From an uncultured Ignavibacteriaceae bacterium (GTDB lineage: Bacteria > Bacteroidota > Ignavibacteria > Ignavibacteriales > Ignavibacteriaceae), in assembly GCA_964371075.1 (NCBI GenBank), contig CAYJKN010000006.1, positions 128,592 to 192,591 of the forward strand: 64,000 nt of DNA, in the 5' to 3' direction. The position numbers and the translations under genes were made by a program. Positions 14,665-34,848 of this stretch are shown piece after piece (position 1 is the stretch's first letter; each line of letters opens with the position of its first letter). The notes below the pieces were generated by a model, which was not told the origin of the DNA, searched no databases, and saw only the letters and a list, made by a program, of their open reading frames with translations.

Positions 14665-14689
14665 TGGGGTGAAGTGTGGAAAAGTGGGT
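14665..14689 (+). promoter_or_regulatory. Putative MraZ operator (three direct repeats at 10-bp spacing)
   Basis: TGGGG (14665), TGTGG (14675) and TGGGT (14685) are phased exactly 10 bp apart, about 50 nt upstream of mraZ. This matches the known TGGGN-N5 triple-repeat architecture of MraZ sites. Confidence 0.55.
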
Positions 14690-14735
14690 AAGTTGCCCAC
14701 AAAAAACCCCAAAAACAAATAAAAGGACCGCCTTA

Positions 14736-16110: not shown

Positions 16111-16113
16111 TTA

Positions 16114-16443
16114 GTGAAAAAATCTTATAAAAAAAATATACTCTGGTTTCTGTTCTTCGCCTCGTGCATCGGGGTAATGGCATATTATTATATAAGCATC
16201 AATCTTGTGAATACAAAACTTTCGAAACAGATTGATGATTTGAAAGCTGAAATTAAAATTGAACAGTCGAATGTCAATTCATATAAAGCGGTGTTCGACA
16301 AACTGGTTTCCAAAGAACAGATAGTGCCCTTGGCAGAATCCAAGTTGGGACTTATTACAAGTTTTGATTCTACAGGAACAATTACACTTTCTCAGCAAGA
16401 AATTGAAGAATTTGAAAACAAGATTAACTATCTAAATGAATAG
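16114..16443 (+). CDS. ftsL: FtsL-like cell division protein
   Basis: Small bitopic protein (one TM segment, then a coiled-coil-like region) in the canonical slot between rsmH and ftsI. GTG start. Confidence 0.7.
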   Translation: MKKSYKKNILWFLFFASCIGVMAYYYISINLVNTKLSKQIDDLKAEIKIEQSNVNSYKAVFDKLVSKEQIVPLAESKLGLITSFDSTGTITLSQQEIEEFENKINYLNE

Positions 16444-18442: not shown

Positions 18443-19921
18443 ATGAGACTTAACGAAATACTGGATCACTTAACTGTTATTCAACTCACAGGCGATTTTT
18501 TCGCTAATGAGATAACAGGGATCTATTACAACTCGGCTAAAGTTACAAAAGATTCCATTTTTGTTGCCGTTAAGGGTTACAAAACTGATGGTCACCGTTT
18601 TGCCATGGATGCCTTCAGCAAAGGAGCAGCCGCAATCATTGTTGAAGACCTTCATTCAATTCCCGATGAGATTTTTAGACGGAGTGGGCAGGCTAAAATT
18701 GTTGTGGCAGACACTCGCAAAGCACTCGCTCAAATTTCAGCAGCATATTATGGATTTCCATCAAAAAAACTGAGATTGTTTGGTGTAACGGGCACAAAGG
18801 GAAAGACCACCACATCGTTTTTGATCAAAAATATTCTTAAAAAAGCGGGACACAAGACAGGTCTTATTGGCACGATTGCAAATATGATCGGTGATGAAAA
18901 AGTGCCAACCGAGCTCACAACCCCTGAATCTGTTGAATTAAATGCACTTTTTGCCCGTATGGTAAATGAAGGATGCACAGCCGCGGTAATGGAGGCATCA
19001 TCCCATTCCCTTTATCTTAAAAGGACTTTTGGACTTGATTTTGATGGAGCTGTTTTTACCAATCTTTCAAGCGAACACAGAGATTTCCATGAAACCATGG
19101 ATGATTATGCCACTGCAAAAAAATTACTTTTTGATGAGTTAAAAACGGGAGTGCCTGCGGTTTACAACATCGATGATGAGTATGGATGTTTCATCACCAA
19201 AGACACAAACGGCAGAAAAGTCAGCTTTGGTAAACTCGGCGGAAATTACCGGCTTGAGGATATCACTTTCGATTTTAGTGGAACTTCATTCACACTGGAT
19301 CACAATGGTATAAAAACCGATCTAAGAACCGCTCTGGTGGGTGAGTTTAATGCCTACAACGCTGCGGCAGCTTATGTTTTGATGGTTGAAGCTGGTTTTG
19401 ACAAAGATCTGGTAGCAGAGGGAATTGCAGAAGCACCACAAGTGGATGGCAGATTTGAACTGATAAAATCGGGAAATAAAAAAGTACTTGTAGACTATGC
19501 ACACAGCCCCGGGGCACTTGAGCAAGTGTTGATAAGCATTAACAAACTTGCAGGTGAATCGCCGATCTACACAGTGATTGGCTGTGGTGGAAACCGCGAC
19601 AAAACAAAACGACCTGTTATGGGAAGAATTGCAGCCGAAATGTCAACAGTTGCAGTAATCACAAGTGATAATCCAAGAGATGAAGACCCTGATGAGATCG
19701 TTAAAGAAGTGGTTGCAGGTATTTCGACAGATAACTTGATTGTTTGTACAGATCGCGAAGAAGCAATTAAGAGAGCAATAAACGAGAGTCCCGATAATGC
19801 AATCATACTTATTGCCGGAAAAGGGCACGAGGACTACCAGATTATTAAAGGGGTGAAATATCATTTTTCAGACCGTGAAATGACAAACAAATATCTGTTT
19901 GGCAACGGGGAGCAGAATTGA
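18443..19921 (+). CDS. murE: UDP-MurNAc-L-Ala-D-Glu:meso-DAP ligase
   Basis: GVTGTKGKTTT P-loop. DNPR motif (ITSDNPRDEDP), which is typical of meso-DAP-adding enzymes. Confidence 0.9.
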   Translation: MRLNEILDHLTVIQLTGDFFANEITGIYYNSAKVTKDSIFVAVKGYKTDGHRFAMDAFSKGAAAIIVEDLHSIPDEIFRRSGQAKIVVADTRKALAQISAAYYGFPSKKLRLFGVTGTKGKTTTSFLIKNILKKAGHKTGLIGTIANMIGDEKVPTELTTPESVELNALFARMVNEGCTAAVMEASSHSLYLKRTFGLDFDGAVFTNLSSEHRDFHETMDDYATAKKLLFDELKTGVPAVYNIDDEYGCFITKDTNGRKVSFGKLGGNYRLEDITFDFSGTSFTLDHNGIKTDLRTALVGEFNAYNAAAAYVLMVEAGFDKDLVAEGIAEAPQVDGRFELIKSGNKKVLVDYAHSPGALEQVLISINKLAGESPIYTVIGCGGNRDKTKRPVMGRIAAEMSTVAVITSDNPRDEDPDEIVKEVVAGISTDNLIVCTDREEAIKRAINESPDNAIILIAGKGHEDYQIIKGVKYHFSDREMTNKYLFGNGEQN

Positions 19922-21300
19922 TAACTGTCCGGGAAATTATTGCTGCCTCAACCAGGCCATTAAAAATTATTAATTCGGATGAAAAAACAATTTTTAATTC
20001 TGTTGTTATTGATTCCAGAAAAGTTATTCCCGGCTCATTATTCATTGCCGTTAAAGGTGAAAGATTCGACGGACACGATTTTATTCCGGAAGCTGTGGCA
20101 AGAGGAGCAAGTGGGATAGTTGTCAAAAAATCAAGAATTTCAGAATATTCTGAGAACAAGGTAATCGTTATTGGTGTCACTGATACTGAAATTGCTCTTG
20201 GTTTTATTGCCGGTGAGTGGAGAAAACACCTGAAAGCAAAAGTTATTGGTATAACCGGCAGCAATGGTAAGACCACTACAAAAGATATGCTTGCGACGAT
20301 TCTGAAAGTTAACCATAACGTAGTGGCAACTGTCGCCAATAATAACAATCACATAGGTGTTCCTCTTACGATACTTGAAGCCACCAATGAGACAGAATAT
20401 CTGGTGTGTGAAATTGGTACAAACCATCCCGGGGAAATAAAATATTCATCTTTGATAGCACAACCCGATTTTGCATTGATCACAAACATTGGTGACTCCC
20501 ATCTGGAATATCTGATAAACAGAAAAGGAGTCAGGCAAGAAAAAGAAGCCTTGTTCGCAGTGACACTTGATAGAGGTGGAAAAGTATTTCTGAACATTGA
20601 TGATCCTTTTTTAAGCCGTTTGGGATCTAAATTTCCCGATGCCATCACTGTATCGATGAAGCTTCCGGCGGATGTGACAGGGAAACTTCTCGCCTACACC
20701 GAAACCGGATTACCAATACTCCGAATTTCTTCAGGTAAAGAGTCAGTGAAAGTTGAACTACAACTTTTTGGTAAAAATAATGGACAAAACGCCCTTGGAG
20801 CTGCGGCATTGGCAATAAAATGTGGGATTCCCCTTGAGGATATTAAAACAGGGCTTGAGAGTCTCAAACCTCCAAAAGGGAGAATGAACAGATATACTCT
20901 TGATGGATTTGATCTGATTGATGATACATATAACGCAAATCCTGCGAGTATGAAGAGTGCATTTGAAACCATGGGAAGAGATTTGATCCATGAAAAAAGA
21001 GTGGTCATCCTTGGAGATATGTTCGAATTGGGAGTAAAATCCAGGGAGCGCCATGAATTTCTTGCAACACAATTGAAGACAACACGAATTAAACGGGCTT
21101 TTTTGATTGGAAGCAACATGCGCCATTTGTATAACGCTCTCAAAGGAAGCAAAATAACTGCAGAACACTTTAAGACGAAAGAAGATTTAATTCAATCACT
21201 TTCGAATTATGATTTCAGAAATTCCCTCGTACTCGTAAAAGGGTCAAGAGGAATGGAGATGGAGACTATAGTAAAATTTTTGAAAGAAAAAGGCAACTAA
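19918..21300 (+). CDS. murF: UDP-MurNAc-tripeptide:D-Ala-D-Ala ligase
   Basis: GITGSNGKTTTKD. Position after murE. TTG start overlapping the murE stop. Confidence 0.9.
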   Translation: MITVREIIAASTRPLKIINSDEKTIFNSVVIDSRKVIPGSLFIAVKGERFDGHDFIPEAVARGASGIVVKKSRISEYSENKVIVIGVTDTEIALGFIAGEWRKHLKAKVIGITGSNGKTTTKDMLATILKVNHNVVATVANNNNHIGVPLTILEATNETEYLVCEIGTNHPGEIKYSSLIAQPDFALITNIGDSHLEYLINRKGVRQEKEALFAVTLDRGGKVFLNIDDPFLSRLGSKFPDAITVSMKLPADVTGKLLAYTETGLPILRISSGKESVKVELQLFGKNNGQNALGAAALAIKCGIPLEDIKTGLESLKPPKGRMNRYTLDGFDLIDDTYNANPASMKSAFETMGRDLIHEKRVVILGDMFELGVKSRERHEFLATQLKTTRIKRAFLIGSNMRHLYNALKGSKITAEHFKTKEDLIQSLSNYDFRNSLVLVKGSRGMEMETIVKFLKEKGN

Positions 21301-22410
21301 ATGCTCTATTATTTACTCGAGTATTTGAATAAAACTTTTGATCCTCCCGGTCTCGATATGATCAAATATCTGACTTTCAGATCGGGAATAGCGGCTATTA
21401 CCGGCCTTTTTATGGCGTTTTTCTTCGCTCCGCGAATCATTAAAATGCTCCAAAAACATCAAATTGGTGAGAAAATAAAGGATTTTGGCCCCAAAACTCA
21501 CTTTAGTAAAGCCGGGACACCAACCATGGGGGGACTAATAATTCTCACCTGCGTGGTAATTCCCGTTTTGTTGTGGGGAGATATTAAAAGCACATATATC
21601 TGGTTGTTGCTTGTTGGCACCCTGTTATTGGGTGGAGTGGGATTCCTTGATGATTACCTGAAAGTAATCAAAAAGATGCCAAATGGACTGATTGCCAGAT
21701 ATAAACTGATTGGTCAGGTTTCTGTTGGATTGCTTGTTGGAAGTGTACTCTATTTTTCACCCGAATTTGCTGATGTAAGATCACTGACAACAATTCCATT
21801 TTTTAAGGATTTGAATCTTGATCTATCATATCTTTATATCCCTGCTGTGATATTTATAATAACAGCAACATCCAATGCAGTAAATCTTACAGATGGACTT
21901 GACGGGTTGGCAATTGGTCTCACGATCATTGCGATGCTGGCACTTGGAGTAATCAGTTATATCTCCGGAAATGCCATCTACTCCGATTATTTAAACATTA
22001 TCTATCTCCCCGGCTCGGGGGAATTGTCGGTTTTTATCGCTGCACTCATTGGGGCGGGGCTTGGATTCCTTTGGTTTAATTTTTATCCTGCACAGGTTTT
22101 TATGGGGGACACAGGGAGTCTTGCACTCGGTGGAGCTCTCGGGATTTTGTCGGTTATGGTTAGAAAAGAGTTGTTGTTGCCGTTTCTCGCAGGTGTTTTC
22201 TTTTTTGAGACCATCTCTGTAATCATACAGACCTCATATTTTAAATATACCAAAAGGAAATACGGAACGGGGAAAAGAGTTTTTAAGATGGCTCCAATTC
22301 ACCACCATTTTGAAGAAAAGGGGTGGGCAGAACCTAAAATTGTTGTTAGATTTTATATCATTGGCATAATCCTCGCGATCATCAGCTTAACATCGTTTAA
22401 GATAAGGTGA
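21301..22410 (+). CDS. mraY: Phospho-MurNAc-pentapeptide translocase
   Basis: NAVNLTDGLDGLA, MGDTGSLALGG, PIHHHFE. Confidence 0.95.
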   Translation: MLYYLLEYLNKTFDPPGLDMIKYLTFRSGIAAITGLFMAFFFAPRIIKMLQKHQIGEKIKDFGPKTHFSKAGTPTMGGLIILTCVVIPVLLWGDIKSTYIWLLLVGTLLLGGVGFLDDYLKVIKKMPNGLIARYKLIGQVSVGLLVGSVLYFSPEFADVRSLTTIPFFKDLNLDLSYLYIPAVIFIITATSNAVNLTDGLDGLAIGLTIIAMLALGVISYISGNAIYSDYLNIIYLPGSGELSVFIAALIGAGLGFLWFNFYPAQVFMGDTGSLALGGALGILSVMVRKELLLPFLAGVFFFETISVIIQTSYFKYTKRKYGTGKRVFKMAPIHHHFEEKGWAEPKIVVRFYIIGIILAIISLTSFKIR

Positions 22411-22414
22411 AAAA

Positions 22415-23767
22415 GTGAAGAGTTACCAAAAATTAAAAATATCGATTATTGGAGCTGCCAGAAGTGGTGAAGCCGCAGCATATCTTGCCGTAAAATGTGG
22501 TGCCACACCTTTTGTAAGCGACAAATCACCTTACGAATCGATTTCTGAAGTAGTTGACAGATTAAAACTTGCCGGAATAGAAGTTGAAACAGGTAAAAAC
22601 AGTGAGAGCGTGTTTAACTGTGACCTGATGATCGTCTCTCCCGGGGTGCCGATGGAAGCTCCTGTGGTAGTTGAAGCCCAAAAGAGGGGGATCAGGCTGA
22701 TAAGCGAAGTTGAATTTGCTTCGTCCTTGTGTAAAGGCAGAATTTTTGCAATCACCGGAACAAATGGAAAAACCACAACAACTGCACTTTTGCACCACAT
22801 TTTTAGTCTTTCAGGTATAAAGTCGTTTTCAGCGGGAAATATTGGAACTGCATTTTCAGAGATCGCACTTGAGTGTGATGAAAACTCCCTCGTTGCCCTT
22901 GAATTATCAAGTTTTCAACTCGATTTGATCGATCAATTTAAGCCTGAAGGTGCAGCAATTTTGAATATTACACCTGATCATTTAAACAGGTATGGCTACA
23001 AAATTGAAAATTATATCGCTTCAAAATACCGGATATTTATGAACCAGAGTGGAACGGATCTTTCACTTTATAATGCGGATGATCCTGTTCTAAAGGCACA
23101 TGGTTATAAAGGAGCTCTGATTGAATTCTTCTCTACAAGGAATGAAGTGAGTAACGGAACATATCTCTCGGGGAAAAGACTTGTAACGAGGATAGCCGGA
23201 AAAGTGGTTTTCTCGTGCGACACAAGTGATCTGAAGTTAAGAGGAGAGCATAATTATGCAAACGCTGCTGCAGCTATTACACTCGCTTTAAAAGCAGGTG
23301 TCCCGACAGGTATTATTAGAGACGGATTGTTCACATTTGAAGCGGTTGAACACAGGCTTGAGGCTGTGCCATCACAAGATGGAATCATTTATATAAATGA
23401 CTCAAAAGCAACAAATGTTGACTCTGTTATTTATGCGTTAAAAAGTTTTGATGCCCCGATCTATTTAATTCTGGGTGGAATTGATAAAGGAAACGACTAT
23501 AACCTGATCAAAGATCTTGTATTAAAAAATGTTAAAAAGATTTATGCAATTGGTGAATCAGCTCATAAAGTAATCGATTTTTTTGGAAAATTGCTCCCTG
23601 TCGAAAAGGTAACTTCTCTCGAAGATTGTGTACTGAAAGGACACGAGGAGGCAAATCAGGGCGATGTGGTGTTGTTATCCCCTGCCTGTGCGAGTTTTGA
23701 TATGTTTAGAAGTTATGAACACCGTGGAAAAGTTTTTAAAGAAGCAGTCAGAGAGATTGCCGGGTGA
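22415..23767 (+). CDS. murD: UDP-MurNAc-L-Ala:D-Glu ligase
   Basis: AITGTNGKTTT, DSKATN. GTG start. Confidence 0.9.
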   Translation: MKSYQKLKISIIGAARSGEAAAYLAVKCGATPFVSDKSPYESISEVVDRLKLAGIEVETGKNSESVFNCDLMIVSPGVPMEAPVVVEAQKRGIRLISEVEFASSLCKGRIFAITGTNGKTTTTALLHHIFSLSGIKSFSAGNIGTAFSEIALECDENSLVALELSSFQLDLIDQFKPEGAAILNITPDHLNRYGYKIENYIASKYRIFMNQSGTDLSLYNADDPVLKAHGYKGALIEFFSTRNEVSNGTYLSGKRLVTRIAGKVVFSCDTSDLKLRGEHNYANAAAAITLALKAGVPTGIIRDGLFTFEAVEHRLEAVPSQDGIIYINDSKATNVDSVIYALKSFDAPIYLILGGIDKGNDYNLIKDLVLKNVKKIYAIGESAHKVIDFFGKLLPVEKVTSLEDCVLKGHEEANQGDVVLLSPACASFDMFRSYEHRGKVFKEAVREIAG

Positions 23768-24906
23768 AACCTTACTCCTTCATAATTTTTGTTTGTGCAG
23801 TTCTGCTCGTGATATTTGGATCACTTCTGGTACTTAGTGCCAGCAGCACCTTTGCACAACTGAAGTTTGATAACCCTCAGGCACTATTTGCAGCGCACAT
23901 CGGGAAAGCAATTGGCGGGGTGGTCTTGATGGCAATTCTGGCAATGGTTGACTATCATCATTATAAAAAATACAGTAAGATTGTCCTTATCGGGGCTATA
24001 GTCTTATTGGTTATAACTGTATTTTTTGCCCCTGAGGTTAAGGGATCACAAAGATCTTTTACAATTGGAAGTGTATCATTTCAACCCGTTGAATTAGTAA
24101 AAATTGCACTCTTTATTCATCTTGCTGCGATGCTTGAGAGGATAGGGGATGACATAACTGATATCAAACTTGGTGTGATTAATCCTTTGATTTGGGTGGG
24201 TATTGTAGTTGTGCTCGTTTTGCTTCAGCCAAATGTCAGCAATGGTGTTTTGATCCTTGCAACCGGAATTGCAATGTTGTTTGTAGCGGGAATCAGAATA
24301 CAACACTTTTTAGCGTTTGCCGGGGGCGGCTTTGTGATGGCATTGGGTTATGCACTTTATAAACCCCATTCATTTAAAAGAATTTCCTCCCATTTGGGAG
24401 CGATTTTTGGTGATGGTGACTTCCACCCACAGGTGATGCAATCACTCTACGGGCTTGGTAGCGGCGGTGTTTTGGGTGTAGGGCTGGGACATAGTGCCCA
24501 AAGAAATCTCTTCCTCCCTGAGGCTTATGGTGATTTTATTTTTGCTGTTGCCGGGGAAGAGGCAGGGATGATTGGAACAGTTGGTGTTTTGCTTGCATAC
24601 AGTGCGATACTTGTTTGTGGGCTTATAATTGCTAAAAACGCAAAAGATAAATTTGGCAAACTTTTGGCTTTTGCAATAGCGTTTTCCATTCCTCTTTATG
24701 GTTTCGTGAATGCTGCTGTTGCCATAGGTGTCGTGCCGGTTACGGGTCTGCCGTTGCCACTCATTAGTCATGGAGGAACTGCAATAATCATCGTTTGTTC
24801 GTCAATCGGAATTTTACTGAATATTGGATTGTCGTCAAAAACGGATGAAGCAAAACAAACATCCACCAAAAAAGAAGCAAAAACATGGCAGGAACAGCCG
24901 GTATAA
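23764..24906 (+). CDS. ftsW: SEDS-family peptidoglycan glycosyltransferase FtsW
   Basis: Multi-TM protein. PEAYGDFIFAVAGEEAGMIG and PLPLISHGGTA signatures. dcw position. Confidence 0.9.
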   Translation: MKPYSFIIFVCAVLLVIFGSLLVLSASSTFAQLKFDNPQALFAAHIGKAIGGVVLMAILAMVDYHHYKKYSKIVLIGAIVLLVITVFFAPEVKGSQRSFTIGSVSFQPVELVKIALFIHLAAMLERIGDDITDIKLGVINPLIWVGIVVVLVLLQPNVSNGVLILATGIAMLFVAGIRIQHFLAFAGGGFVMALGYALYKPHSFKRISSHLGAIFGDGDFHPQVMQSLYGLGSGGVLGVGLGHSAQRNLFLPEAYGDFIFAVAGEEAGMIGTVGVLLAYSAILVCGLIIAKNAKDKFGKLLAFAIAFSIPLYGFVNAAVAIGVVPVTGLPLPLISHGGTAIIIVCSSIGILLNIGLSSKTDEAKQTSTKKEAKTWQEQPV

Positions 24907-25994
24907 GAGTTATGTTCACCGGTGGTGGAACAGGTGGACATATTTTCCCTGCAATAGCAGTTGCTGAGCAGTTGAGAGAGATGGAACCGGATACTGATAT
25001 TCTTTTTATCGGAACAAAAAAGAAGATTGAAGAGAGGGTTGTTCCGGCGGCAGGATTCAAATTTAAAAGTATCTGGATATCGGGATTTTCTAGAAAAAGT
25101 ATCAAAGAGAATCTTCTCTTTCCAATAAAATTGATGGTAAGTCTGTTTCAGGCGATTGGAATTTCAATGGGGTTTAGGCCTCAGGTTATTGTTGCAACGG
25201 GGGGATATGTTTCGGGCCCATCAGTTATTGCAGCGAGAATGATGGGGGCAAAAGTTTTACTTATAGAACCAAACAGTTATCCCGGAATCACAACCCGTTT
25301 GCTTGAAAGAAGAGCGGAAGAGATTCACCTGATGTTTAAGGATGCTGTTCAATTTTTGAGGCAACCCGAAAAACTTTTTATCACCGGGAATCCTGTAAGA
25401 AAAAGTCTTGTGTCAATAAACAGGGACGAAGCAAGAAAAAAACTTGGATTGGCTCTTGATTCAAAAGTGGTTTTTGTTGTTGGTGGAAGTCTTGGTGCAA
25501 GAGCGATTAATAAAACAATCGCCGCATCCATAAAAAGGTTTGCAGAGGAAAAAATATCGATTATCTGGCAAACAGGTGCAACATCTTTTGATGAGTTTAA
25601 ATCATTTTCATCGGAAAATGTAAAAGTTCTCTCTTTTATTGAAAATATGAACGAAGTATATGCAGCTTCCGATCTTGTGGTTGCAAGGGCAGGAGCAACA
25701 ACAATAGCAGAACTCGTTTATTTAAATAAACCGGCGGTGTTAATTCCTTTTCCATTTGCCGCAGAGAATCACCAGTTGATGAATGCAAAATCGATGGTTG
25801 AGTTGGGGACAGCGGTTTTGATTGAAGAGAAAGAAATTGATGGAAAGCTGTTTTCAGAAGTGGTTTCTCTTTTAAGTGACGGGAAGAGAATTAAAGTGAT
25901 GGTCGAAAATTTGGAAAAAGCAGGTGGCAAAGATGCTGCTTTTAAAATTGCAGGCAGAGTAATCAACGCCTGTAAATATGGAAATTTTAGTTAG
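24885..25994 (+). CDS. murG: Lipid II synthase MurG
   Basis: GGGTGGHIFPAIAVA, ARAGATTIAEL, NHQLMNA. The start may be the internal Met at 24912. Confidence 0.9.
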   Translation: MAGTAGIRVMFTGGGTGGHIFPAIAVAEQLREMEPDTDILFIGTKKKIEERVVPAAGFKFKSIWISGFSRKSIKENLLFPIKLMVSLFQAIGISMGFRPQVIVATGGYVSGPSVIAARMMGAKVLLIEPNSYPGITTRLLERRAEEIHLMFKDAVQFLRQPEKLFITGNPVRKSLVSINRDEARKKLGLALDSKVVFVVGGSLGARAINKTIAASIKRFAEEKISIIWQTGATSFDEFKSFSSENVKVLSFIENMNEVYAASDLVVARAGATTIAELVYLNKPAVLIPFPFAAENHQLMNAKSMVELGTAVLIEEKEIDGKLFSEVVSLLSDGKRIKVMVENLEKAGGKDAAFKIAGRVINACKYGNFS

Positions 25995-26002
25995 AGGATT
26001 AG

Positions 26003-27385
26003 ATGTTTTCAAAGTTTACTAAAGTGCATTTTGTTGGAATTGGTGGTATAGGAATGAGCAGTATTGCTGAAATCCTTATCTCCAAAGGTTTTACGGTTTC
26101 AGGTTCTGATAAAAACAGATCAGACACCACCGAAAGACTTGAATCTATTGGTGCAACCGTTTATGAAGGACACAGTGCAGAAAATATTAAAGATGTGGAT
26201 GTTGTAGTTTATTCATCCGCTGTAATAGAATCGAATCCTGAAGTTATGGAAGCAATCTCCAGAAACATTCCTGTGATCAAAAGATCTGAGATGCTGGCTG
26301 AAACTATGAGAATGCAGAAATACGGGATTGGTATTGCAGGAACACACGGTAAAACAACCACCACTTCGATGACGGGGCTTGTTTTAACCGAGGCGGGGAT
26401 CGACCCTACTATTATTGTGGGCGGGAAACTTTCCAGTCTTGGTGGCACGAACGCAAGACTCGGACATGGAGACTTTATTGTTGTTGAAGCTGATGAATTT
26501 GACAGAACTTTTTTGAAATTGATGCCGGCAATTGCTGCGATTACAACCCTCGAACGGGAGCATCTCGACACATACCGTGATCTTGATGACATTAAAGATG
26601 CATTTATTGAGTTCGCAAACAAAGTACCTTTTTACGGTTTTGTGGTTCTGTGTATGGATGAGCCTGCCCTGCTTGATATCAGGCCATTTATCAATAAAAG
26701 AATTATAACTTACGGGGTTACTCCTCAGGCTGATTTGAGAGCGGTTAATATTGTTCACGACGGATATAAAACCAAATACACGGTTGTTTATAACAGCAAA
26801 ACTTTGGGAGATATTACTATCGGAGTGCCCGGTCTTCACAATGTAAAAAATTCACTTGTGGCGGTTACAATTGCTCTCGAGTTAAAAGTACCATTTGAAA
26901 CAATTAAATTGGCTCTGGAACGCTTTAGCGGTGTTTACAGAAGATTTGAAGTTAAGTATGACAAAGAAATTATGGTGGTTGACGACTATGGACACCACCC
27001 AACAGAAACAACAGCGACACTTTCAGGAATTAGAGCAGGATGGCAGAGAAGACTTGTATCAGTTTTCCAACCGCACCTCTACTCCAGAACAAGAGATTTT
27101 TATCAGGAATTTGGACGGTCTTTCCTCAATTCGGATGTCTTCATCTGTACTGATATCTACCCTGCGAGAGAAGAACCGATTGAAGGAATCACGGGTGCAC
27201 TCGTTGCTGAAGCGGCAAGAAAGATGGGACACAAAAATGTCATTTTTGTCCCAAACAAAGAGGATGTTCCGGCAACCCTTTTGAAGATCACTGAACCGGG
27301 CGATATAATTGTTACCCTCGGTGCAGGAGATATCTGGAAATATGGTGAAAAGTTTGTTGAACTCTACACTTCAGAGAAGAAATAA
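26003..27385 (+). CDS. murC: UDP-MurNAc:L-Ala ligase
   Basis: FVGIGGIGMS, GIAGTHGKTTTT, DDYGHHPTE. Confidence 0.95.
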   Translation: MFSKFTKVHFVGIGGIGMSSIAEILISKGFTVSGSDKNRSDTTERLESIGATVYEGHSAENIKDVDVVVYSSAVIESNPEVMEAISRNIPVIKRSEMLAETMRMQKYGIGIAGTHGKTTTTSMTGLVLTEAGIDPTIIVGGKLSSLGGTNARLGHGDFIVVEADEFDRTFLKLMPAIAAITTLEREHLDTYRDLDDIKDAFIEFANKVPFYGFVVLCMDEPALLDIRPFINKRIITYGVTPQADLRAVNIVHDGYKTKYTVVYNSKTLGDITIGVPGLHNVKNSLVAVTIALELKVPFETIKLALERFSGVYRRFEVKYDKEIMVVDDYGHHPTETTATLSGIRAGWQRRLVSVFQPHLYSRTRDFYQEFGRSFLNSDVFICTDIYPAREEPIEGITGALVAEAARKMGHKNVIFVPNKEDVPATLLKITEPGDIIVTLGAGDIWKYGEKFVELYTSEKK

Positions 27386-27388
27386 GTT

Positions 27389-28168
27389 ATGAAAAAAAGC
27401 AGGATTATTCCCGCACTTATACTCCTTGTCCTCCTGGCAGCCGGCACAACGGCTCTGCCCGGTTTCTTCTTTAAGGAAGAGATTCAGCAGAAGGTTACGG
27501 GATATGAGATTAAAGGGGCAAACCTGCTTACTGCTGAAGATTATATAAAATTTGCACATGCTGCCCCTGAAAAAGGTGAATACCCTGAAATTAATGTTCT
27601 CTACGACAGAATGTTGAATCATCCTTACATCAAAAATCTTGAAATGAGATTTAGTGATGGTGGAGTGGTGAAAATCGATATTACTGAGAAGGAGATAGTC
27701 GCTTCAATTTTCACTGGAGAAAAACTTTCGCTTTTAAGCAATGAACTTGAATTATTGCCCGTGATGAAAGAGTTGAAAAATTTTGATTATCCCGTGATAA
27801 GAAATACCCGGTTAAACAGTGTAAGATATTTTAAAACATTTCAGGATTCAACCGTTCTTCCCGGTTATAAAATTGCGCGGGCATGCAAAATTTTAGGTGG
27901 CGAAATTGCCGCTAATCTCTCGGAAATCGATCTTCGTCAAGGTGGTGATATCATCCTCGTCTTCTCAGATATGAAACCTCCCGTCATTTGTTCTGCAAGA
28001 GGAATTGCCGAACAGATGCTTATTCTCAGAGAAATCAGAGGGATGGGTAAACAACTGGAGTTAAACAACGATGTGGAATATATCGATCTGAGGTATTCCG
28101 GCAAAATCTATATGGGAAACAAGAAATTGGAAAGAAAAGATGAAAAACGAGATAATAACCGGACTTGA
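27389..28168 (+). CDS. ftsQ: Cell division protein FtsQ (POTRA-containing)
   Basis: Single N-terminal TM segment. Position between murC and ftsA. Size fits. Confidence 0.75.
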   Translation: MKKSRIIPALILLVLLAAGTTALPGFFFKEEIQQKVTGYEIKGANLLTAEDYIKFAHAAPEKGEYPEINVLYDRMLNHPYIKNLEMRFSDGGVVKIDITEKEIVASIFTGEKLSLLSNELELLPVMKELKNFDYPVIRNTRLNSVRYFKTFQDSTVLPGYKIARACKILGGEIAANLSEIDLRQGGDIILVFSDMKPPVICSARGIAEQMLILREIRGMGKQLELNNDVEYIDLRYSGKIYMGNKKLERKDEKRDNNRT

Positions 28169-29456
28169 TATTGGCTCCACAAAGGTCTGTGCTGTAATAG
28201 CGGAAAAGACCGGCAAGAACAAGTTTAAAATTCTTGGAGTGGGGAAAGCTCCAAGCACAGGTCTCGTTCGTGGTGAAGTGAGTAATATCATCGATACAGC
28301 AAACTCGATAAAAGCTGCGCTTAACGAAGCTGAAGAACAAGCCGGTGTAAAGGTAACAGAAGTTATTGCAGGTGTTTCGGGAGAAAATATAAGCAGTATC
28401 AGGTCAAGAAATTATGTGACCATTACCAATGAAGAGCAGGAAGTTACGATGGCAGACCTTCGTAAACTGAAAGAGGATATGCGCAGTATCCAGTTTTCAA
28501 AAGATATGAAAATTCTGCATATTCTTCACGAAGAGTTTTTTGTTGACCGTCAGGGAGTTGTAACAAATCCTTTGGGTGTTGCGTGTTCAAGAATTGAAGC
28601 ATCAAACCATGTAGTGATGGCTTCGGGTACGGCAATTCAAAATATTCAAAAATCGGTTAAAAGGGGTGGATATGAAGTTGGTGATCTGAAACTTCAATCG
28701 CTTGCTTCAGCCTCTGCCGTTCTTGAAGATGCCGAAAAAGATCTTGGTGTTTTGCTGCTTGATATTGGTGGTGGAACAACTGATGTGCTTATCTACCAGG
28801 GAAATGCAATCAGATACTCAAGAGTTTATGGAATCGCCGGTAACAGGATAACAAATGATATCAAAGAAACCTTAAATGTTATTGCCGAAGATGCGGAACA
28901 ACTTAAAACAAATTATGGATACGCAACAGAGGCCGCAATCGTAAAAGATGATACCATTACTGTTAAAGGTGTTGGACCCCGTCCAAGCACAAGAATCCCA
29001 ATCAGTCTGTTAACTCAGATAATCAGAAGCAGGGTTGAAGAGCTTTTTGAAATCATCAACATAGAACTTGAAAAATCGGATGTAAAGAAAAAAATTCGTG
29101 CCGGATTGGTGATCACCGGGGGTGGAGCACTTCTTAAAGGAATCACAGATCTTGCCGAAAAGGTTTTTGGAGTTCCTGCCAGAGTGGGTTTACCGGCAGA
29201 AGAACATTTTGACGGAAGCATTGGCGAACTTTCTAAACCGGAATATGCAACTGCATTGGGTTTACTTTTGCCGCTTGAAGAAGATTATCTTGTCGATTCC
29301 GAAGAGGAAGAAAAACCTAAAGGTACATTCTGGAGACGAGGGAAATCGACTGACAAAACAAAAAGTGAAAAGTCGGAAAGTAAAAAATCGAAATCGAAAT
29401 CATCGCCAATTAAAGATTTTCTCCTCAAAATAAGAGCTCAATACGATGATTTATAA
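28140..29456 (+). CDS. ftsA: Cell division protein FtsA
   Basis: GLDIGSTKVCAVIAE, DIGGGTTDV, ITGGGALLKGI. Basic linker plus a C-terminal amphipathic helix IKDFLLKIRAQY. Confidence 0.95.
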   Translation: MKNEIITGLDIGSTKVCAVIAEKTGKNKFKILGVGKAPSTGLVRGEVSNIIDTANSIKAALNEAEEQAGVKVTEVIAGVSGENISSIRSRNYVTITNEEQEVTMADLRKLKEDMRSIQFSKDMKILHILHEEFFVDRQGVVTNPLGVACSRIEASNHVVMASGTAIQNIQKSVKRGGYEVGDLKLQSLASASAVLEDAEKDLGVLLLDIGGGTTDVLIYQGNAIRYSRVYGIAGNRITNDIKETLNVIAEDAEQLKTNYGYATEAAIVKDDTITVKGVGPRPSTRIPISLLTQIIRSRVEELFEIINIELEKSDVKKKIRAGLVITGGGALLKGITDLAEKVFGVPARVGLPAEEHFDGSIGELSKPEYATALGLLLPLEEDYLVDSEEEEKPKGTFWRRGKSTDKTKSEKSESKKSKSKSSPIKDFLLKIRAQYDDL

Positions 29457-30033
29457 AAATCCGGTATTGTTCGTCATAGGAAATGCACTCTCTGTGATGA
29501 TTGAAAAGATGTCGTCACCACTGGGTCAAAATGTCCAAATCGTGTTTGTTGGAACTGACGAAGAAGAATTAAAACAATATTCTTCGGGGAAAAAACTGAT
29601 AGTTAATGAGGGGATCAGGGATTTTTACATCGATGAATCGATTCTTTATTTGAATCAAACTGAATTTGACAATTTGGAAAAAGCGATTACATATCTGATA
29701 AGCGGCACAAAAAATCTTTTTGTCCTCTTTTCTCTTAGTGATCCTTTATCACTTGCAATTACACCGATACTTGCTCAATCTGCCGGAAGATCAAAATGTG
29801 ATCCGAGTTTTATCGGGGTTAATATGAACAATTATGATTCTCATGAAGAGAAAATTGCAAATGAAAACATCAACTATTTTTTAAAGAACCGCTACAGGTT
29901 TTATCTAATCGAAAAAGAAGAAAACAACTTCTCGCTGCAAGCAAACGAGGAAAAATCGAACAGTGAATTGCTGGATGAGATAATCAATTCATTAGTGAAA
30001 AATTTAAAACAGGCTGAATCAAAAATTAAGTAA
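29446..30033 (+). CDS. Hypothetical 195-aa protein; FtsZ N-terminal-domain-like fold lacking GTP-binding motifs (hypothesis)
   Basis: Overlaps the ftsA stop by 11 nt and ends 13 nt before ftsZ. It aligns without gaps (constant offset of 11 residues) to FtsZ residues about 19-166 from this window. Shared anchors: G12, M22, T37-D38, K49-K50, G87, F92, P107-I108, A110-Q111, Y130, E140, K147. The T1 loop and the GGGTGTG box are not conserved. Confidence 0.6.
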   Translation: MIYKNPVLFVIGNALSVMIEKMSSPLGQNVQIVFVGTDEEELKQYSSGKKLIVNEGIRDFYIDESILYLNQTEFDNLEKAITYLISGTKNLFVLFSLSDPLSLAITPILAQSAGRSKCDPSFIGVNMNNYDSHEEKIANENINYFLKNRYRFYLIEKEENNFSLQANEEKSNSELLDEIINSLVKNLKQAESKIK

Positions 30034-30046
30034 TACTGGAGGTATT

Positions 30047-31366
30047 ATGTCCTTTGCAACATTGGAACAACAAGAAGTAATTTTACGCGCCAACCTTAAA
30101 GTTGTAGGTGTTGGTGGTGGAGGCTGTAACGCGGTAAATTCGATGATCAAACAGGGTCTCGAGGGAGTCGAGTTTATTGCAATCAACACCGATGCCCAAT
30201 GTCTCGACTCAAACCTTGCTTCAAAAAAGGTTACAATCGGAACAAAAATCACGAAAGGTCTCGGTGCCGGAGCTAATCCTGAAGTTGGAAAAGCTGCCGC
30301 TGAAGAAGATCGTGCAAAAATTGAAGAAGTGCTCATGGGTGCGGATATGGTATTTATAACCGTAGGCATGGGTGGAGGCACAGGAACGGGTGCTGCTCCA
30401 ATAGTTGCACAGATCGCAAAACAGAACGGCTCTCTTGTGGTTGCAATAGTTACCAAACCCTTCAGATATGAAGGTCCAAACAGAATGAAAAATGCTGAAG
30501 CAGGAATTCAGGAAGTGAAGAAGTATGTTGACAGTCTAATCATCGTACAAAACGCTAAACTTCATGATCTGCTCCACAAAGATGCACCTGCATTTTCAGG
30601 TTTCGATAAACCAAACGAAATTCTTTATGAGGCAACCAAAGGTATTGCAGAAGTAATCACCTATGAAGGTATGATCAACTGCGATTTTGCGGATGTAAGA
30701 ACTGTAATGCAGGCAAGTGGTCTGGCACTTATGGGAACAGGTACTGCTACTGGCGAAAACAGAGCAATTGAAGCTGCACAGAAGGCAATTTCAAGTCCTC
30801 TCCTCGAGGGAATGGATATCCGTGGTGCTAAATCGATGTTGGTTAACATTACTGCTTCAACAAATCTCACGATGCATGAAGTTCAGGATGGAATGGCAAC
30901 AATTCAGGAAGCAGCCGGAGAAGATGCCAATGTTATCTTTGGTCTGGTTCAAAAAGAAGAAATGAAAGATTACCTTTCTTTTACAGTTATTGCCACAGGA
31001 TTTGACAGCTCAAAGCAGAATAGCCGTCCAATTCCGACAGAAAAACCTGTTGAAAAACAGCAATCAAATCAATCCTTTTCGGGAGCGTATTCTCACAGCG
31101 CTGCTGCTGAAGCACAGGTTGTAACCCCAACTTTCCCGATCAGGGACCTTAACAAGGATGACATAAATACTCCTGCTTTTCTCAGAGAGCAATTAAGAGC
31201 TACCCATGGAACCGAATCTCAGGTTCAGGAGCAAAAATCGTTTGATTTCAAAGATTCAAAACAAGACAATGTTAATTCTTTGAAATTCAAGAGTAACCCC
31301 AACAGTGTAGCAAAGGAAGAAGATGATGATCAAAGTGCTTCATTCTTAAGAATGATCATGGATTAG
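30047..31366 (+). CDS. ftsZ: Cell division GTPase FtsZ
   Basis: GVGGGGCNAVN, GMGGGTGTGAAP, NCDFADV (T7 loop), C-terminal peptide SASFLRMIMD. Confidence 0.97.
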   Translation: MSFATLEQQEVILRANLKVVGVGGGGCNAVNSMIKQGLEGVEFIAINTDAQCLDSNLASKKVTIGTKITKGLGAGANPEVGKAAAEEDRAKIEEVLMGADMVFITVGMGGGTGTGAAPIVAQIAKQNGSLVVAIVTKPFRYEGPNRMKNAEAGIQEVKKYVDSLIIVQNAKLHDLLHKDAPAFSGFDKPNEILYEATKGIAEVITYEGMINCDFADVRTVMQASGLALMGTGTATGENRAIEAAQKAISSPLLEGMDIRGAKSMLVNITASTNLTMHEVQDGMATIQEAAGEDANVIFGLVQKEEMKDYLSFTVIATGFDSSKQNSRPIPTEKPVEKQQSNQSFSGAYSHSAAAEAQVVTPTFPIRDLNKDDINTPAFLREQLRATHGTESQVQEQKSFDFKDSKQDNVNSLKFKSNPNSVAKEEDDDQSASFLRMIMD

Positions 31367-31393
31367 CACAGCCCTTACACACTAAATACCTCC

Positions 31394-31439
31394 GTTTGGA
31401 CGGTACACATCAGCCGGTGTACCGTTCCAAACATTTTTT
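31394..31439 (+). terminator. Rho-independent terminator closing the dcw cluster
   Basis: GTTTGGACGGTACAC...GGTGTACCGTTCCAAAC forms a stem of about 15 bp followed by a T-run. Confidence 0.75.
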
Positions 31440-31532
31440 AATATAAACCACACGACCACCAGCCTTTTTTCACTTTCAAATTGAGATAATATTGAGTAAT
31501 TTTCAAGTGTAAATTTGAAAAAGGAGTGTACA

Positions 31533-31733
31533 ATGAAAATGCAGATTGATATTGATAAAGAAATGCTTGATGAAGCAATGAAACTTGGCAAACATGATAG
31601 CAAAAAAGCGACTATTGATGCAGCCATAAAAGAGTACATTGCCCGGAAGAAACGAATTGAAATTAAAGAACTTTTTGGTTCGGTAGAGTATGATCCAGAA
31701 TATGATTACAAACAATTAAGACAAGCTCGTTGA
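31533..31733 (+). CDS. vapB: Type II antitoxin, VapB-like
   Basis: MKMQIDIDKEMLDEAMKLGKHDSKKATIDAAIKEYIARKKR. AAGGAG lies 6 nt before the ATG at 31533. The stop overlaps the toxin start (TTGA). Confidence 0.75.
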   Translation: MKMQIDIDKEMLDEAMKLGKHDSKKATIDAAIKEYIARKKRIEIKELFGSVEYDPEYDYKQLRQAR

Positions 31734-32128
31734 AAGTAATTGTTGATACTTGTGTTTGGACAAGCGTGCTGCGGAAACAGCCGCTAAAATCTTCCTGAAA
31801 AGATAAGCTGCTTGAACAATTGATTGAGTCCGATCAAATAATCATGTTAGGCCCGATCAGACAGGAATTATTGTCAGGGATAAAAGATGACAAAAAATTT
31901 GATGATTTAAAAAGCAAACTTATCTGGTATGATGACTTTGAGATAAAAACTGCCGATTACGAATTAGCTGCGTCGTTATTTAATAAATTAAAATCGAAAG
32001 GAATACAGGGATCCAATATCGATTTCCTAATCTGTGCAGTAACCCTGAATAATAATCTGAGCATATACACTTATGATCAGGATTTTTTTCGTTTTTCTGG
32101 CGTAATACCAATTAAGCTGGTTCAATAA
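31730..32128 (+). pseudogene. vapC: PIN-domain toxin VapC interrupted by one in-frame TGA (31796-31798)
   Basis: (M)KVIVDTCVWTSVLRKQPLKSS-stop-KDKLLEQLIESDQIIMLGPIRQELLSG...NIDFLICAV...TYDQDFF. Both halves are in the same frame. Together they give about 132 aa with the four PIN acidic positions (D6, the E of QELL, the D of IDFL, the D of DQDF). Confidence 0.75.
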
Positions 32129-32453: not shown

Positions 32454-33329
32454 ATGAAGAAGCTGATATTTTTATTTTTTCTAACCACAAATATTGTTTT
32501 TAGTCAGGAGCTTGATGCTACTGTTATCGTAAATTCTGAGAATTTATCGATCCGTTACCGTGAAATCCTTGCTGATTTTGGGCCAATGGTTCAGACTTAT
32601 CTTAACACGACTAAATTCAGCGGCTCGCCTTGGGAATATGAGAAGGTAAAATGCAGTTTTAATGTTTTTTTTAGTACAGTAAGCGATGAATCCAATTACA
32701 CCGCTCAAGTGGTAGTAACAAGTATGCGACGGGTTTACCAAAGTCAAAAGTTTTCACCTATGATGGTGGTTAACGATGGAACATGGGCTTTTGTTTATGA
32801 AAAAAATCAGTCAATCTTTTTTGATCCCAACTATTTTAACGGACTCACTTCATTTCTCGACTATTATGCTTATATGATCATCGGTTTCGAAAATGATTCT
32901 TGGGAAAGGGGAGCCGGCACACCATTTTTTCAAAAAGCGTTTGATCTTGTAAATCTGGCAAATGGGAGAAGAGCCACAGGGTGGGAAGCCGGATCAAGTT
33001 ATAACAAATCAGATTTTGTTCAAAATATTCTTGATAATAAATATAGTGCATTCAGAGATGCAACAACAGAATATCACCGTGGAATTGATATTTACACTAA
33101 AAATAAAGCAAAGGGGCAGGAACTGATAGTTAAGATGATAAAAGCTCTTGATCAGATGAAATCAAAAATTGATTTCAGAAGTGTTTATTTAAAGGTTTTC
33201 TTTGATGCCAAAAGTGGTGAGATTATCGAATACTTAAAAGACTATCCTGAAAAGTCGATCTTCAAAATATTAAAAACCGTGGATCCCCCAAGACTTGCAA
33301 AGTATGACGAGATTCTTCGGGCCGAATAA
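32454..33329 (+). CDS. Secreted DUF4835-like protein (family assignment from memory)
   Basis: Signal peptide ending VFSQE. The pattern NVFFSTVSDESNYTAQVVV...FLDYYAYMIIGFENDSWE resembles DUF4835 proteins of Bacteroidota. Confidence 0.5.
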   Translation: MKKLIFLFFLTTNIVFSQELDATVIVNSENLSIRYREILADFGPMVQTYLNTTKFSGSPWEYEKVKCSFNVFFSTVSDESNYTAQVVVTSMRRVYQSQKFSPMMVVNDGTWAFVYEKNQSIFFDPNYFNGLTSFLDYYAYMIIGFENDSWERGAGTPFFQKAFDLVNLANGRRATGWEAGSSYNKSDFVQNILDNKYSAFRDATTEYHRGIDIYTKNKAKGQELIVKMIKALDQMKSKIDFRSVYLKVFFDAKSGEIIEYLKDYPEKSIFKILKTVDPPRLAKYDEILRAE

Positions 33330-33387: not shown

Positions 33388-34848
33388 TTACTTCAATATT
33401 TGAAGTTTTACCATCATTGATTTAATTCCAACAACCGAACCTGTCGTAATTCTCACAATATAAGTTCCTGAAGAAAGACCATTCCCAATGTTTACCGGTT
33501 CACTGTATCTTCCCGGTGAAAGGAAACCAAAGTCTTTTTCATAAATCACACGTCCGAGTAAATCATAAAGAGTTAAACTTGAACTGCCGGCTTCCGGTAC
33601 AGTAAAGACAATGGTAGCAGATGAATTTCCTGCACCTGAACTTGATGAAAAAGGATTTGGAAAAGCAGATATCTGATATTCCCGGGGTAATGACTCCTCA
33701 TTTTCAACAGATGTTGGTGCCAGGTATTTACTTAATTCTGTCCACAGTTCGGTTCTGTCCCTGTCGTAACCCAAAGCCCACATGCCAACGCCCCTGTAAT
33801 TTTTCTGTTTGGCAAGATTAAATTTTAAGGCAGTACTGCTGTCATCATCAAACCACACCTGATTAAATTTGTTGTTATTTGGGATTGTATAATAAACAGT
33901 CTGCGATGAAGTATGCCAAATAAGAGTGTAAAACTGAGATTGAGCCATGGCTGCATAAACTCTGGGATGTCCGATATATGAGCTGACAGTGGCCCCGGGT
34001 TGATTGGTATTTGCCACCCACTCACATCCATAATAGGGAACACCTAGGATCAACTTTTCGGGTGGGCATCCGGCATATTGAGTATTCACTGTGTTGGTTA
34101 TATTGTAACCTCCACCTGTAAGAGGGGCTGAGGGACCCGTTGTGGTGCTCCATGATCCATAAAAATCATAACCCATTATAAATATATAATCGCATGAAGC
34201 GGCAAGCCCTTGAAGATTCCATCCACTCCAGTTAACTGCAGGACCGGCAAAAGAGACCTCTTTCCCCGGGAGCTCAGTGTGAATATAGTTGGTTAATTCT
34301 GTCATAAAACCATTGATTACGAACCCTCGATCGGCAGTGTTAAGGCTTTCAAAGTCGATGTTTACTCCATCAAGCGAATATTGGTTGATAGTTGCTTTAA
34401 CTTTTGCAAAGAAGTTTTGTTTTGCTGTTGCATTTGTAATCAACCAGTGAATTTGTGATCCATCAAAATTGACGGCAGTCATAATCACTTTTACACCATT
34501 TTGGTGGGCTGTATTAATCATATTTGTCCATGGCCACCCCGATGGATTGCTGACATTTCCGAGAGAGTCGATCTGGAAGTCGAAAGCAGAAATATGGGTA
34601 ATAATATCATATCTAAGCCAGGTAAGTGCACCCGGATATTCCCAATAGGGGAGAAAACCAAAAACTATTTTTGCATTACCTGCAGATTTATCAAATTGCA
34701 GAGGGATTATCGCATCGGATTCTGAAATACCTTTATCATAGGGTCTTGATTTGTAAAATTCGAGATCTGATTGATGGATCGAACGATGTTCCTGTGCATA
34801 CATCATTGCAGAAAGAACCAGGAACAGGATAAGGGGACTAAACTTCAT
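33388..34848 (-). CDS. GH18 glycoside hydrolase (chitinase-like) with T9SS C-terminal sorting domain
   Basis: Signal peptide. GH18 catalytic motif LDGVNIDFES (DxxDxDxE). C-terminal ...SAFPNPFSS...LTLYDLLGRVIY...GTYIVRI is CTD-like. Confidence 0.85.
   Translation of the reverse strand: MKFSPLILFLVLSAMMYAQEHRSIHQSDLEFYKSRPYDKGISESDAIIPLQFDKSAGNAKIVFGFLPYWEYPGALTWLRYDIITHISAFDFQIDSLGNVSNPSGWPWTNMINTAHQNGVKVIMTAVNFDGSQIHWLITNATAKQNFFAKVKATINQYSLDGVNIDFESLNTADRGFVINGFMTELTNYIHTELPGKEVSFAGPAVNWSGWNLQGLAASCDYIFIMGYDFYGSWSTTTGPSAPLTGGGYNITNTVNTQYAGCPPEKLILGVPYYGCEWVANTNQPGATVSSYIGHPRVYAAMAQSQFYTLIWHTSSQTVYYTIPNNNKFNQVWFDDDSSTALKFNLAKQKNYRGVGMWALGYDRDRTELWTELSKYLAPTSVENEESLPREYQISAFPNPFSSSSGAGNSSATIVFTVPEAGSSSLTLYDLLGRVIYEKDFGFLSPGRYSEPVNIGNGLSSGTYIVRITTGSVVGIKSMMVKLQILK

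Follow-up and report, generated by a model that had tools for sequence, protein, structure and literature searches.

The 64,000-nucleotide stretch analysed here (the window; positions 128,592 to 192,591 of contig CAYJKN010000006.1, from an uncultured Ignavibacteriaceae bacterium) carries a complete division and cell wall (dcw) operon at 14676-31366 on the plus strand, as delineated by Pfam matches and the list of open reading frames (ORFs). Its genes run in the order mraZ, rsmH/mraW, ftsI, murE, murF, mraY, murD, ftsW, murG, murC, a gene at the ftsQ position, ftsA, a short gene called X here, and ftsZ. Gene X is the subject of this analysis. The explanation that accounts for it best, and which we consider probable, is that X is a degenerate paralogue of the FtsZ N-domain, derived from the resident ftsZ, which very probably lacks FtsZ-type GTP binding and may modulate FtsZ as a capper or sequesterer.

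Gene X at the ftsA-ftsZ junction

The features of the junction are as follows:

28140..29456, plus strand: ftsA, 438 residues (Pfam FtsA 6e-42, SHS2_FTSA 2e-18)
29446..30033, plus strand: gene X, 195 residues, ATG start, probable degenerate FtsZ N-domain paralogue spanning S1 to H7 (ORF, homologs, synteny, model)
29446..29456, plus strand: 11-nucleotide ftsA/X overlap, ATGATTTATAA, a likely termination-reinitiation coupling site
30034..30046, plus strand: 13-nucleotide X-ftsZ spacer, with the ftsZ Shine-Dalgarno sequence GGAGG at 30038-30042
30047..31366, plus strand: canonical ftsZ, 439 residues, start at 30047 (Pfam Tubulin 2e-49, FtsZ_C 3e-30)

The initial annotation, which had described a 195-residue ORF overlapping the ftsA stop by 11 nucleotides and ending 13 nucleotides before ftsZ, thus had its coordinates right. 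The X start codon sits inside the final ftsA codons (…D-D-L-stop) and has no Shine-Dalgarno sequence of its own, while ftsZ has GGAGG. The neighbouring FtsZ is unremarkable: its T1, T4 and T7 motifs and C-terminal FtsA-binding peptide are intact, as judged by the invariant columns of an alignment of 46 FtsZ sequences (alignment A2). Antisense to X there is no ORF of at least 50 residues; a scan of 27300-31800 for sigma-70 promoters and intrinsic terminators returned site counts equal to the shuffle expectation and no sign of a separate transcription unit; and no mobile-element genes lie at the ftsA-X-ftsZ junction. X would share a transcript with ftsA and ftsZ, its translation being coupled to that of ftsA.

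Is this ORF a gene at all? A word-indexed search of 5.8 billion proteins retrieved 14 clusters of X homologs (53-92% identity), all unannotated or labelled "hypothetical", the named ones from Ignavibacteriales. The 15 X-family sequences (alignment A1) share 48 invariant and 25 nearly invariant columns and span 188-195 residues, apart from one 171-residue cluster representative that lacks the N-terminus. As the initial annotation had suggested, the junction was surveyed in relatives: X is encoded at nine related loci (eight species-representative genomes and one further locus), all of them metagenome-assembled genomes (MAGs) labelled Ignavibacteriales, Ignavibacteriaceae or "Chlorobiota", the complete genome CP129491 among them. 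The order murC-ftsQ-ftsA-X-ftsZ is constant across the nine, the contig of one locus (L005) stopping before ftsZ. The ATG and the 11-nucleotide overlap with ftsA are kept at eight of the nine loci, L005 having TTG and a 14-nucleotide overlap; the spacer between X and ftsZ (12-24 nucleotides) retains GGAGG in all eight loci that include ftsZ. The X proteins of the nine loci span 53-97% identity with an intact ORF, and the ratio of nonsynonymous to synonymous substitution rates (dN/dS; Nei-Gojobori, pairs with unsaturated dS of 0.3-0.7) is 0.06-0.12, compared with 0.03-0.05 for FtsA and FtsZ and 0.06 for the gene at the ftsQ position. These values indicate strong purifying selection on X, slightly more relaxed than on its neighbours, and X is almost certainly a functional protein-coding gene. 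At locus L002 (MAG JADJNX010000001) ftsZ is split into two frames at codon ~209 (L002 ~5225-5228), probably an assembly error rather than a true frameshift; the contig name suggests a long-read assembly.

Predicted fold and register against FtsZ

What, then, is the protein? An AlphaFold2 model of X built from alignment A1 has a mean predicted local distance difference test score (pLDDT) of 81.5 and a predicted template modelling score (pTM) of 0.83. The initial annotation had proposed a Foldseek comparison of such a model, and the outcome bears it out: a search of 350,542 PDB chains gave 116 matches at E<=1e-3, of which the best 50 are all FtsZ or phage TubZ (E 5e-7 to 1e-5, probability 1.00), with TM-scores of 0.56-0.64 normalised to X. 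The matched FtsZ proteins come from S. aureus, K. pneumoniae, M. tuberculosis, E. coli, P. aeruginosa, B. subtilis, Spiroplasma and S. mutans, and phage TubZ 3v3t is also among the matches (E 3e-6). In a library of predicted viral structures, a TMq above 0.5 is seen only for tubulin, PhuZ and FtsZ-like proteins; generic alpha/beta proteins reach 0.3-0.4.

The FtsZ of the window was modelled in the same way (N-domain pLDDT 65-90 per 10-residue block). When the DSSP string of X is slid along that of FtsZ, agreement is best at an offset of 11 residues, where 161 of the 195 positions coincide. The elements, with X numbered as X+11 and the FtsZ counterpart in brackets (E, strand; H, helix), are:

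E18-22 (17-22); H24-32 (23-35); E42-47 (42-47)
H50-54 (50-54); E60-63 (60-63); H82-96 (78-96)
E101-107 (101-107); H111-126 (112-126); E130-137 (130-137)
H143-158 (144-158); E163-169 (163-168); H185-205 (182-203)

In these predicted models the order of elements in X matches the N-domain of the superfamily, S1-H1-S2-H2-S3-H3-S4-H4-S5-H5-S6 followed by the core helix H7, with only two local differences: a short helix in the T3 region of X (X55-59) and a beta-strand (X161-166) replacing FtsZ H6. X thus corresponds to FtsZ residues 12-206 without an insertion or deletion (indel) and stops where H7 ends, short of the T7 loop. On the strength of these models, X very likely has the FtsZ/tubulin N-domain fold.

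The same register is found in the sequences. The initial annotation had aligned X to the adjacent FtsZ by eye, gaplessly and at offset 11; this is indeed the best of all diagonals, and the matched segments it listed are all present. Over X1-150 and FtsZ12-161 there are 22 identities (9.0 expected), and the BLOSUM62 total of +13 compares with -135 +/- 25 in shuffled sequences (z 5.9); X and the neighbouring FtsZ are about 15% identical. One of the listed pairs, Y130/Y141, exists as described, but Y130 is conserved in the closest relatives only, and a 3-residue indel affects the region around it. When the two families are compared as profiles, without gaps over 195 residues, offset 11 scores -30 and the next best of 245 offsets scores -108 (z 5.4); against column-shuffled profiles the z is 6.0, and none of 300 shuffles matches the score at any offset. 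At offset 11, 12 positions with conservation of 80% or more in each of the two families hold the same residue (the mean at other offsets is 3.2), including, as X/FtsZ, G12/G23, T37-D38/T48-D49, L42/L53, K50/K61, P107/P118, A110/A121, E140/E151 and A190/A201. Finally, a hidden Markov model (HMM) of the FtsZ N-domain ranks the X of the window above 99.5% of 3000 shuffled decoys, and an X HMM ranks the median FtsZ above 99.8% of decoys; overall, these HMM-decoy comparisons give P of about 0.002-0.02.

With the register in hand, the fate of each FtsZ motif can be read off:

29479..29499, plus strand: T1-loop equivalent, X 12-18, GNALSVM for FtsZ GGGGCNA (offset-11 alignment; the first Gly alone is kept)
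29551..29562, plus strand: T2-loop equivalent GTDE, in which T37-D38 corresponds to FtsZ T48-D49 and is invariant in both families
29587..29697, plus strand: the most conserved X block, residues 48-84, GKKLIVNEGIRDFYID..LNQ.EFD.L..AI.YL, equivalent to FtsZ S3-T3-H3 (alignment A1, DSSP)
29737..29757, plus strand: T4-loop equivalent, X 98-104, SDPLSLA for the tubulin signature GGGTGTG (FtsZ 109-115; offset 11)
29965..30027, plus strand: C-terminal helix, X 174-194, equivalent to the FtsZ core helix H7 (FtsZ H182-203; DSSP), in which invariant A190 corresponds to FtsZ A201

The substitution at T1 is the one given in the initial annotation; for the tubulin signature it had SLSDPLS, which is two residues off. 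Within the X family the T1 region has the consensus IG..LS, with G12, L15 and S16 conserved; the T3 motif GxGAGxxP (GLGAGANP in FtsZ) is absent, and the stretch that replaces it forms part of the most conserved block; D99-P100-L101 is invariant at the T4 equivalent; and the T5 equivalent is variable, with a 3-residue indel. Glycine makes up 4.1% of X and 12.3% of FtsZ 12-206. X has no T7 synergy loop (NxDFAD), C-terminal domain, linker or FtsA-binding peptide: FtsZ ends in …SASFLRMIMD and X in …NLKQAESKIK, which lies within the H7-like helix. This helix had been described as a short charged tail that replaced the missing parts; it is the H7 equivalent and no new appendage. A role for it as a membrane-targeting or FtsA-binding peptide was considered and rejected, as the helix coincides with H7 and averages about 0 in hydrophobicity. 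The protein as a whole is acidic (isoelectric point 4.9), with no hydrophobic or FtsA-type terminal peptide, and has an invariant basic/aromatic patch, FLKNRYR (X 145-151), away from the former nucleotide face.

Because X is colinear with the product of the adjacent gene without a single indel, the source would be FtsZ itself rather than a remote member of the tubulin family or a Rossmann fold arrived at by convergence. That X descends from FtsZ is, taken together, likely.

Distribution and neighbouring genes

The X family is very narrow and restricted to a single subclade of uncultured Ignavibacteriaceae. When 1.84 billion 50%-identity representatives were searched exhaustively with the HMMER profile, X's own cluster alone came back, with no intermediates bridging it to FtsZ. 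Most carriers are MAGs, and the names of their records or isolates hint at wastewater or anammox reactors. Their FtsZ proteins form a distinct group, 76-99% identical to the FtsZ of the window over the first 330 residues, and the remaining Ignavibacteria FtsZ are at most 70% identical to it. In four out-clade Ignavibacteria loci (L009, L011/L012, L013/L014 and L015) ftsA lies directly next to ftsZ, and the in-clade locus L016 carries X. The ranking of X identities matches those of FtsA, FtsZ and MurC. This clade-restricted presence and the parallel rankings fit a single insertion followed by vertical descent: X would go back to the resident ftsZ of the ancestor of this Ignavibacteriaceae subclade, with partial tandem duplication as the probable route, and would since have been inherited vertically under purifying selection.

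The partners of X in the operon have their own peculiarities in this clade. FtsA measures 434-438 residues in X-bearing genomes and 414-416 in out-clade Ignavibacteria, in a comparison of the window with loci L009, L011, L013, L015 and L016. In the FtsA of the window the C-terminal amphipathic helix follows a K/S/E-rich linker (…KSTDKTKSEKSESKKSKSKSS…; 29250-29456, residues ~370-438); the extra ~20 residues are probably in this linker, the groups having been compared by length, and the longer linker may have evolved alongside the arrival of X. The FtsZ of the X-bearing clade, compared with 41 out-clade FtsZ in alignment A2, has 43 clade-specific columns scattered along the protein. At otherwise fixed positions, T5 has W141Y and K144P, and P168 of the S6/T6 "PN" has become Q, K or R; L209, at the start of T7, is variable. 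FtsZ Q122, which is Ser in 40 of the 41 out-clade FtsZ, equals X Q111 at offset 11. The Q122/Q111 match and the substitutions hint at co-evolution or at the date of the duplication without being diagnostic.

A further observation concerns the start codons. Out-clade ftsZ genes are called from an ATG embedded in the last FtsA codons, with an 11-nucleotide overlap (L009 4001-4040; L013/L014 3501); in L009 this ATG is in frame with the ftsZ start that GGAGG precedes and lies 12 codons 5' of it. It is the same ATG that starts X in the X-bearing clade. The shared ATG was rejected as a sign that X retains an ancestral ftsZ start: it lies within FtsA's conserved C-terminal D-(D/E)-L-stop codons.

As for the surrounding genes, the 259-residue product at the ftsQ position (27389-28168, plus strand) has no Pfam or NCBIfam match, and its out-clade orthologues have at best weak POTRA_1/FtsQ_DivIB_C matches, which points to a highly divergent FtsQ in this lineage. 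Directly 3' of ftsZ lies a VapB antitoxin gene (31515-31733, plus strand; Pfam E 6e-14), followed by a PIN-domain ORF (31820-32128, plus strand) that covers only positions 26-117 of the 120-position profile; this coverage and the ~85-nucleotide gap after VapB suggest a VapC toxin that is N-terminally truncated, frameshifted or mis-started. Further downstream are a DUF4835 protein (32454-33329, plus strand) and a GH18 chitinase-like protein (33388-34848, minus strand), the latter with a weak match to a Por/T9SS C-terminal sorting domain (E 9e-4); both are typical FCB-group content and unrelated to X.

Proposed role, alternatives and known systems

If X is an FtsZ N-domain that has lost its motifs, what might it do? 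Loss of the glycine-rich T1, T3 and T4 loops makes FtsZ-type GTP binding very improbable, and the pattern of motif loss predicts a protein that would neither bind or hydrolyse GTP nor polymerise in a GTP-dependent manner. In FtsZ, the nucleotide-binding domain is the top surface of the monomer, which adds onto the T7-exposing bottom of the filament, the growing end; in the S. aureus filament, D46 in T2 of the lower subunit hydrogen-bonds N208 in the upper subunit's T7, and assembly is lost in the D46A mutant (10.1101/2021.11.29.470395). The initial annotation had given X a bottom-face-like surface, which inverts this geometry, as the N-domain forms the top, nucleotide-side face (10.1101/2021.11.29.470395). 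With the nucleotide-binding domain alone present, X would show a top-type face and no bottom face; without a T7 loop, C-terminal domain and FtsA-binding peptide, it could not serve as the "upper" subunit of an FtsZ filament.

These considerations suggest a mechanism. The top face of X, remodelled and highly conserved yet retaining the T2 Thr-Asp, may bind the T7-exposing bottom of FtsZ monomers or of the growing end in a nucleotide-free manner. Nothing could then add after X, which has neither T7 loop nor C-terminal domain, so X would cap or sequester. The amounts of X may be FtsA-like and substoichiometric, because its start is embedded in the end of ftsA without a Shine-Dalgarno sequence and ftsZ has GGAGG; this would suit a capper. 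On this view X could modulate Z-ring dynamics independently of GTP and at substoichiometric levels, as an end-capper or by sequestration. Capping or sequestration of FtsZ by X is offered tentatively, as a possibility that follows from the geometry.

Several observations weigh against this reading, some touching the homology and others the role. X has no PF00091 match in Pfam at E<=10 (the only hit is a chance YqbF at E 1.1), although the initial annotation had named this profile as a check, and no NCBIfam match; phmmer and profile hmmsearch against the PDB give nothing beyond a chance TM1739 (E 0.6). BLASTP of X against the neighbouring FtsZ is not significant (E 0.84), yet falls in the offset-11 register, as does hhalign of A1 against A2 (P 0.074, probability 0.76%), a weak test given the low diversity of the alignments (Neff 1.9 and 2.5). 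Shuffle controls keep alpha/beta periodicity incompletely, which the comparison with other real offsets does keep. The structures of X and FtsZ are both predictions from shallow alignments (15 sequences for X), and AlphaFold2 may favour folds that it has seen many times. The claim of an FtsZ-derived protein without GTPase motifs is supported by predicted structure, synteny and register, but not by the PF00091 search, which gives no match, or by hhalign, which is not significant; since the standard searches are non-significant, the case for homology rests on the predicted structure and a weak, consistent sequence signal. As to the role, X has kept neither the nucleotide nor most of the residues that form the top interface of FtsZ (T3, T5 and the R143 equivalent), which leaves its binding to the bottom face of FtsZ uncertain; and the 43 scattered clade-specific FtsZ columns are not diagnostic of co-evolution with X.

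Could an FtsZ-derived X have another partner? It might bind FtsA or another divisome protein as an adaptor or scaffold, or sense a different small ligand through its remodelled pocket and signal to division. The invariant residues do cluster in the former nucleotide-pocket loops (the T1-T4 equivalents) with new chemistry, for example DPL and NEGIRDFYID; the FLKNRYR patch is a second invariant surface away from the pocket face; the overlap would couple X to ftsA; and FtsA is about 20 residues longer in X-bearing genomes, probably in its linker. However, nothing positive points to any particular partner or ligand, the T2 Thr-Asp that X retains belongs in FtsZ to the filament interface and is an Mg-water residue, and the C-terminal helix is H7-like rather than a membrane or FtsA-type peptide. 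We regard this alternative as unlikely, though it is the strongest competitor.

A second alternative denies the kinship altogether: X would be an unrelated small alpha/beta protein, Rossmann or flavodoxin-like, whose likeness to FtsZ is convergent or a prediction artefact and whose place in the dcw operon is incidental. Three-layer alpha/beta folds are common, the model was built on 15 sequences, and all standard sequence and profile searches fail to tie X to PF00091. Such a protein would have to explain, however, why the best 50 Foldseek matches are exclusively FtsZ/TubZ while non-tubulin alpha/beta proteins in the viral library stay at TMq 0.3-0.4; why the sequence diagonal, the profile diagonal and the predicted secondary structure converge on one gapless, full-length register; why the doubly conserved identities fall at FtsZ hallmark positions (the NTD Thr-Asp, the H4 Pro/Ala); and why X directly adjoins ftsZ. 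This makes convergence or artefact improbable.

Origin from a mobile-element tubulin relative of the TubZ/PhuZ type, or from a horizontally acquired foreign FtsZ, can draw on phage TubZ 3v3t among the Foldseek matches and on the phage tubulins that lead the viral library. It is very improbable: there is no indel relative to the host FtsZ across 195 residues; the best-matching segments are FtsZ-specific, for example H4 (A/T)PI(V/L)AQ, with Q111 equal to the Q122 that is specific to this clade's FtsZ; X lies within the dcw operon, where the junction carries no mobile-element genes; and the profile search finds no other relatives anywhere. A decaying, non-functional remnant of an ftsZ duplication, which the truncation and the loss of all catalytic motifs might evoke, is effectively refuted by the ORF length, start and overlap conserved in nine loci at 53-97% identity, the dN/dS of 0.06-0.12, and the 48 invariant columns, new motifs at the former loops included.

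How does an FtsZ-derived modulator compare with what is known? MciZ, SulA and MinC bind the longitudinal interface of FtsZ and cap filaments or sequester monomers, and the mode proposed for X, longitudinal-interface binding followed by capping or sequestering, is theirs. They differ from X in having unrelated folds and origins, and none is an FtsZ paralogue or encoded between ftsA and ftsZ; X itself has no match to the Pfam/NCBIfam models of SulA, MinC, ZapA-D, SepF, EzrA or MciZ. To our knowledge, the FtsZ regulators so far described in bacteria are unrelated proteins. The end-binder or sequesterer mode draws also on a further study (10.1101/2024.03.31.587266).

Relative to canonical FtsZ (PF00091 plus PF12327), X shares the predicted N-domain fold and order without indels, the residues equivalent to G23, T48-D49, P118 and A121, and the operon; it differs in failing the PF00091 HMM, in lacking the T1, T3, T4 and T7 motifs, the C-terminal domain (no FtsZ_C, PF12327, match in Pfam) and the C-terminal peptide. 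It belongs to the FtsZ/tubulin superfamily by its predicted fold and not by sequence. FtsZl1, a bacterial and archaeal family (Makarova and Koonin, 2010, PMC2875224), likewise has an FtsZ-like N-domain without the canonical FtsZ C-terminal domain. FtsZl1, however, keeps the GTP-binding motifs, is without T6-H7, is encoded outside dcw and has, next to a coiled coil, a helical C-terminal domain (PMC2875224), whereas X has neither GTP motifs nor any extension past H7; the X profile search retrieves no FtsZl1. The literature within reach, which leaves out most subscription journals, holds no description of an FtsZ pseudo-GTPase, of Ignavibacteria FtsZ-like proteins or of a gene intervening between ftsA and ftsZ. 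X looks like a degenerate variant within a known superfamily, apparently undescribed.

The reach of such a protein is limited to one subclade of uncultured Ignavibacteriaceae, and it exemplifies a conserved division-operon gene that Pfam, NCBIfam and HMMER do not see and that is recognised through predicted structure only. Laboratory interface mutants and truncated FtsZ fragments have served to define filament polarity; a natural N-domain-only protein would be a ready means to ask which filament end is important in vivo and what share of the longitudinal interface works nucleotide-free. If the proposed role is true, X would be the first bacterial FtsZ-derived pseudo-GTPase regulator.

The best functional analogy comes from plants. 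According to two reports, ARC3, which has an FtsZ-like domain, directly inhibits Z-ring assembly (10.1101/2024.01.08.574726; PMC12232670); there, as is proposed for X, a domain derived from FtsZ has been put to use in regulating FtsZ assembly and not as a polymer subunit. ARC3 is eukaryotic and multi-domain, combining the FtsZ-like domain with a middle domain and MORN, and is chloroplast-targeted and regulated by ARC6/PARC6 (PMC12232670), unlike X, a single 195-residue domain in a bacterial dcw operon with no MORN match in Pfam; the two have no detectable sequence relationship, hence independent origins. The boldest form of the proposal is also the more doubtful one: X may be a natural "half-FtsZ", a nucleotide-independent growing-end capper that evolved from FtsZ and became fixed within the dcw operon, and an independent bacterial counterpart of ARC3. 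If so, bacteria, like plants with ARC3, would be able to convert a subunit of the cytoskeleton into a pseudoenzyme governing the polymer from which it came.

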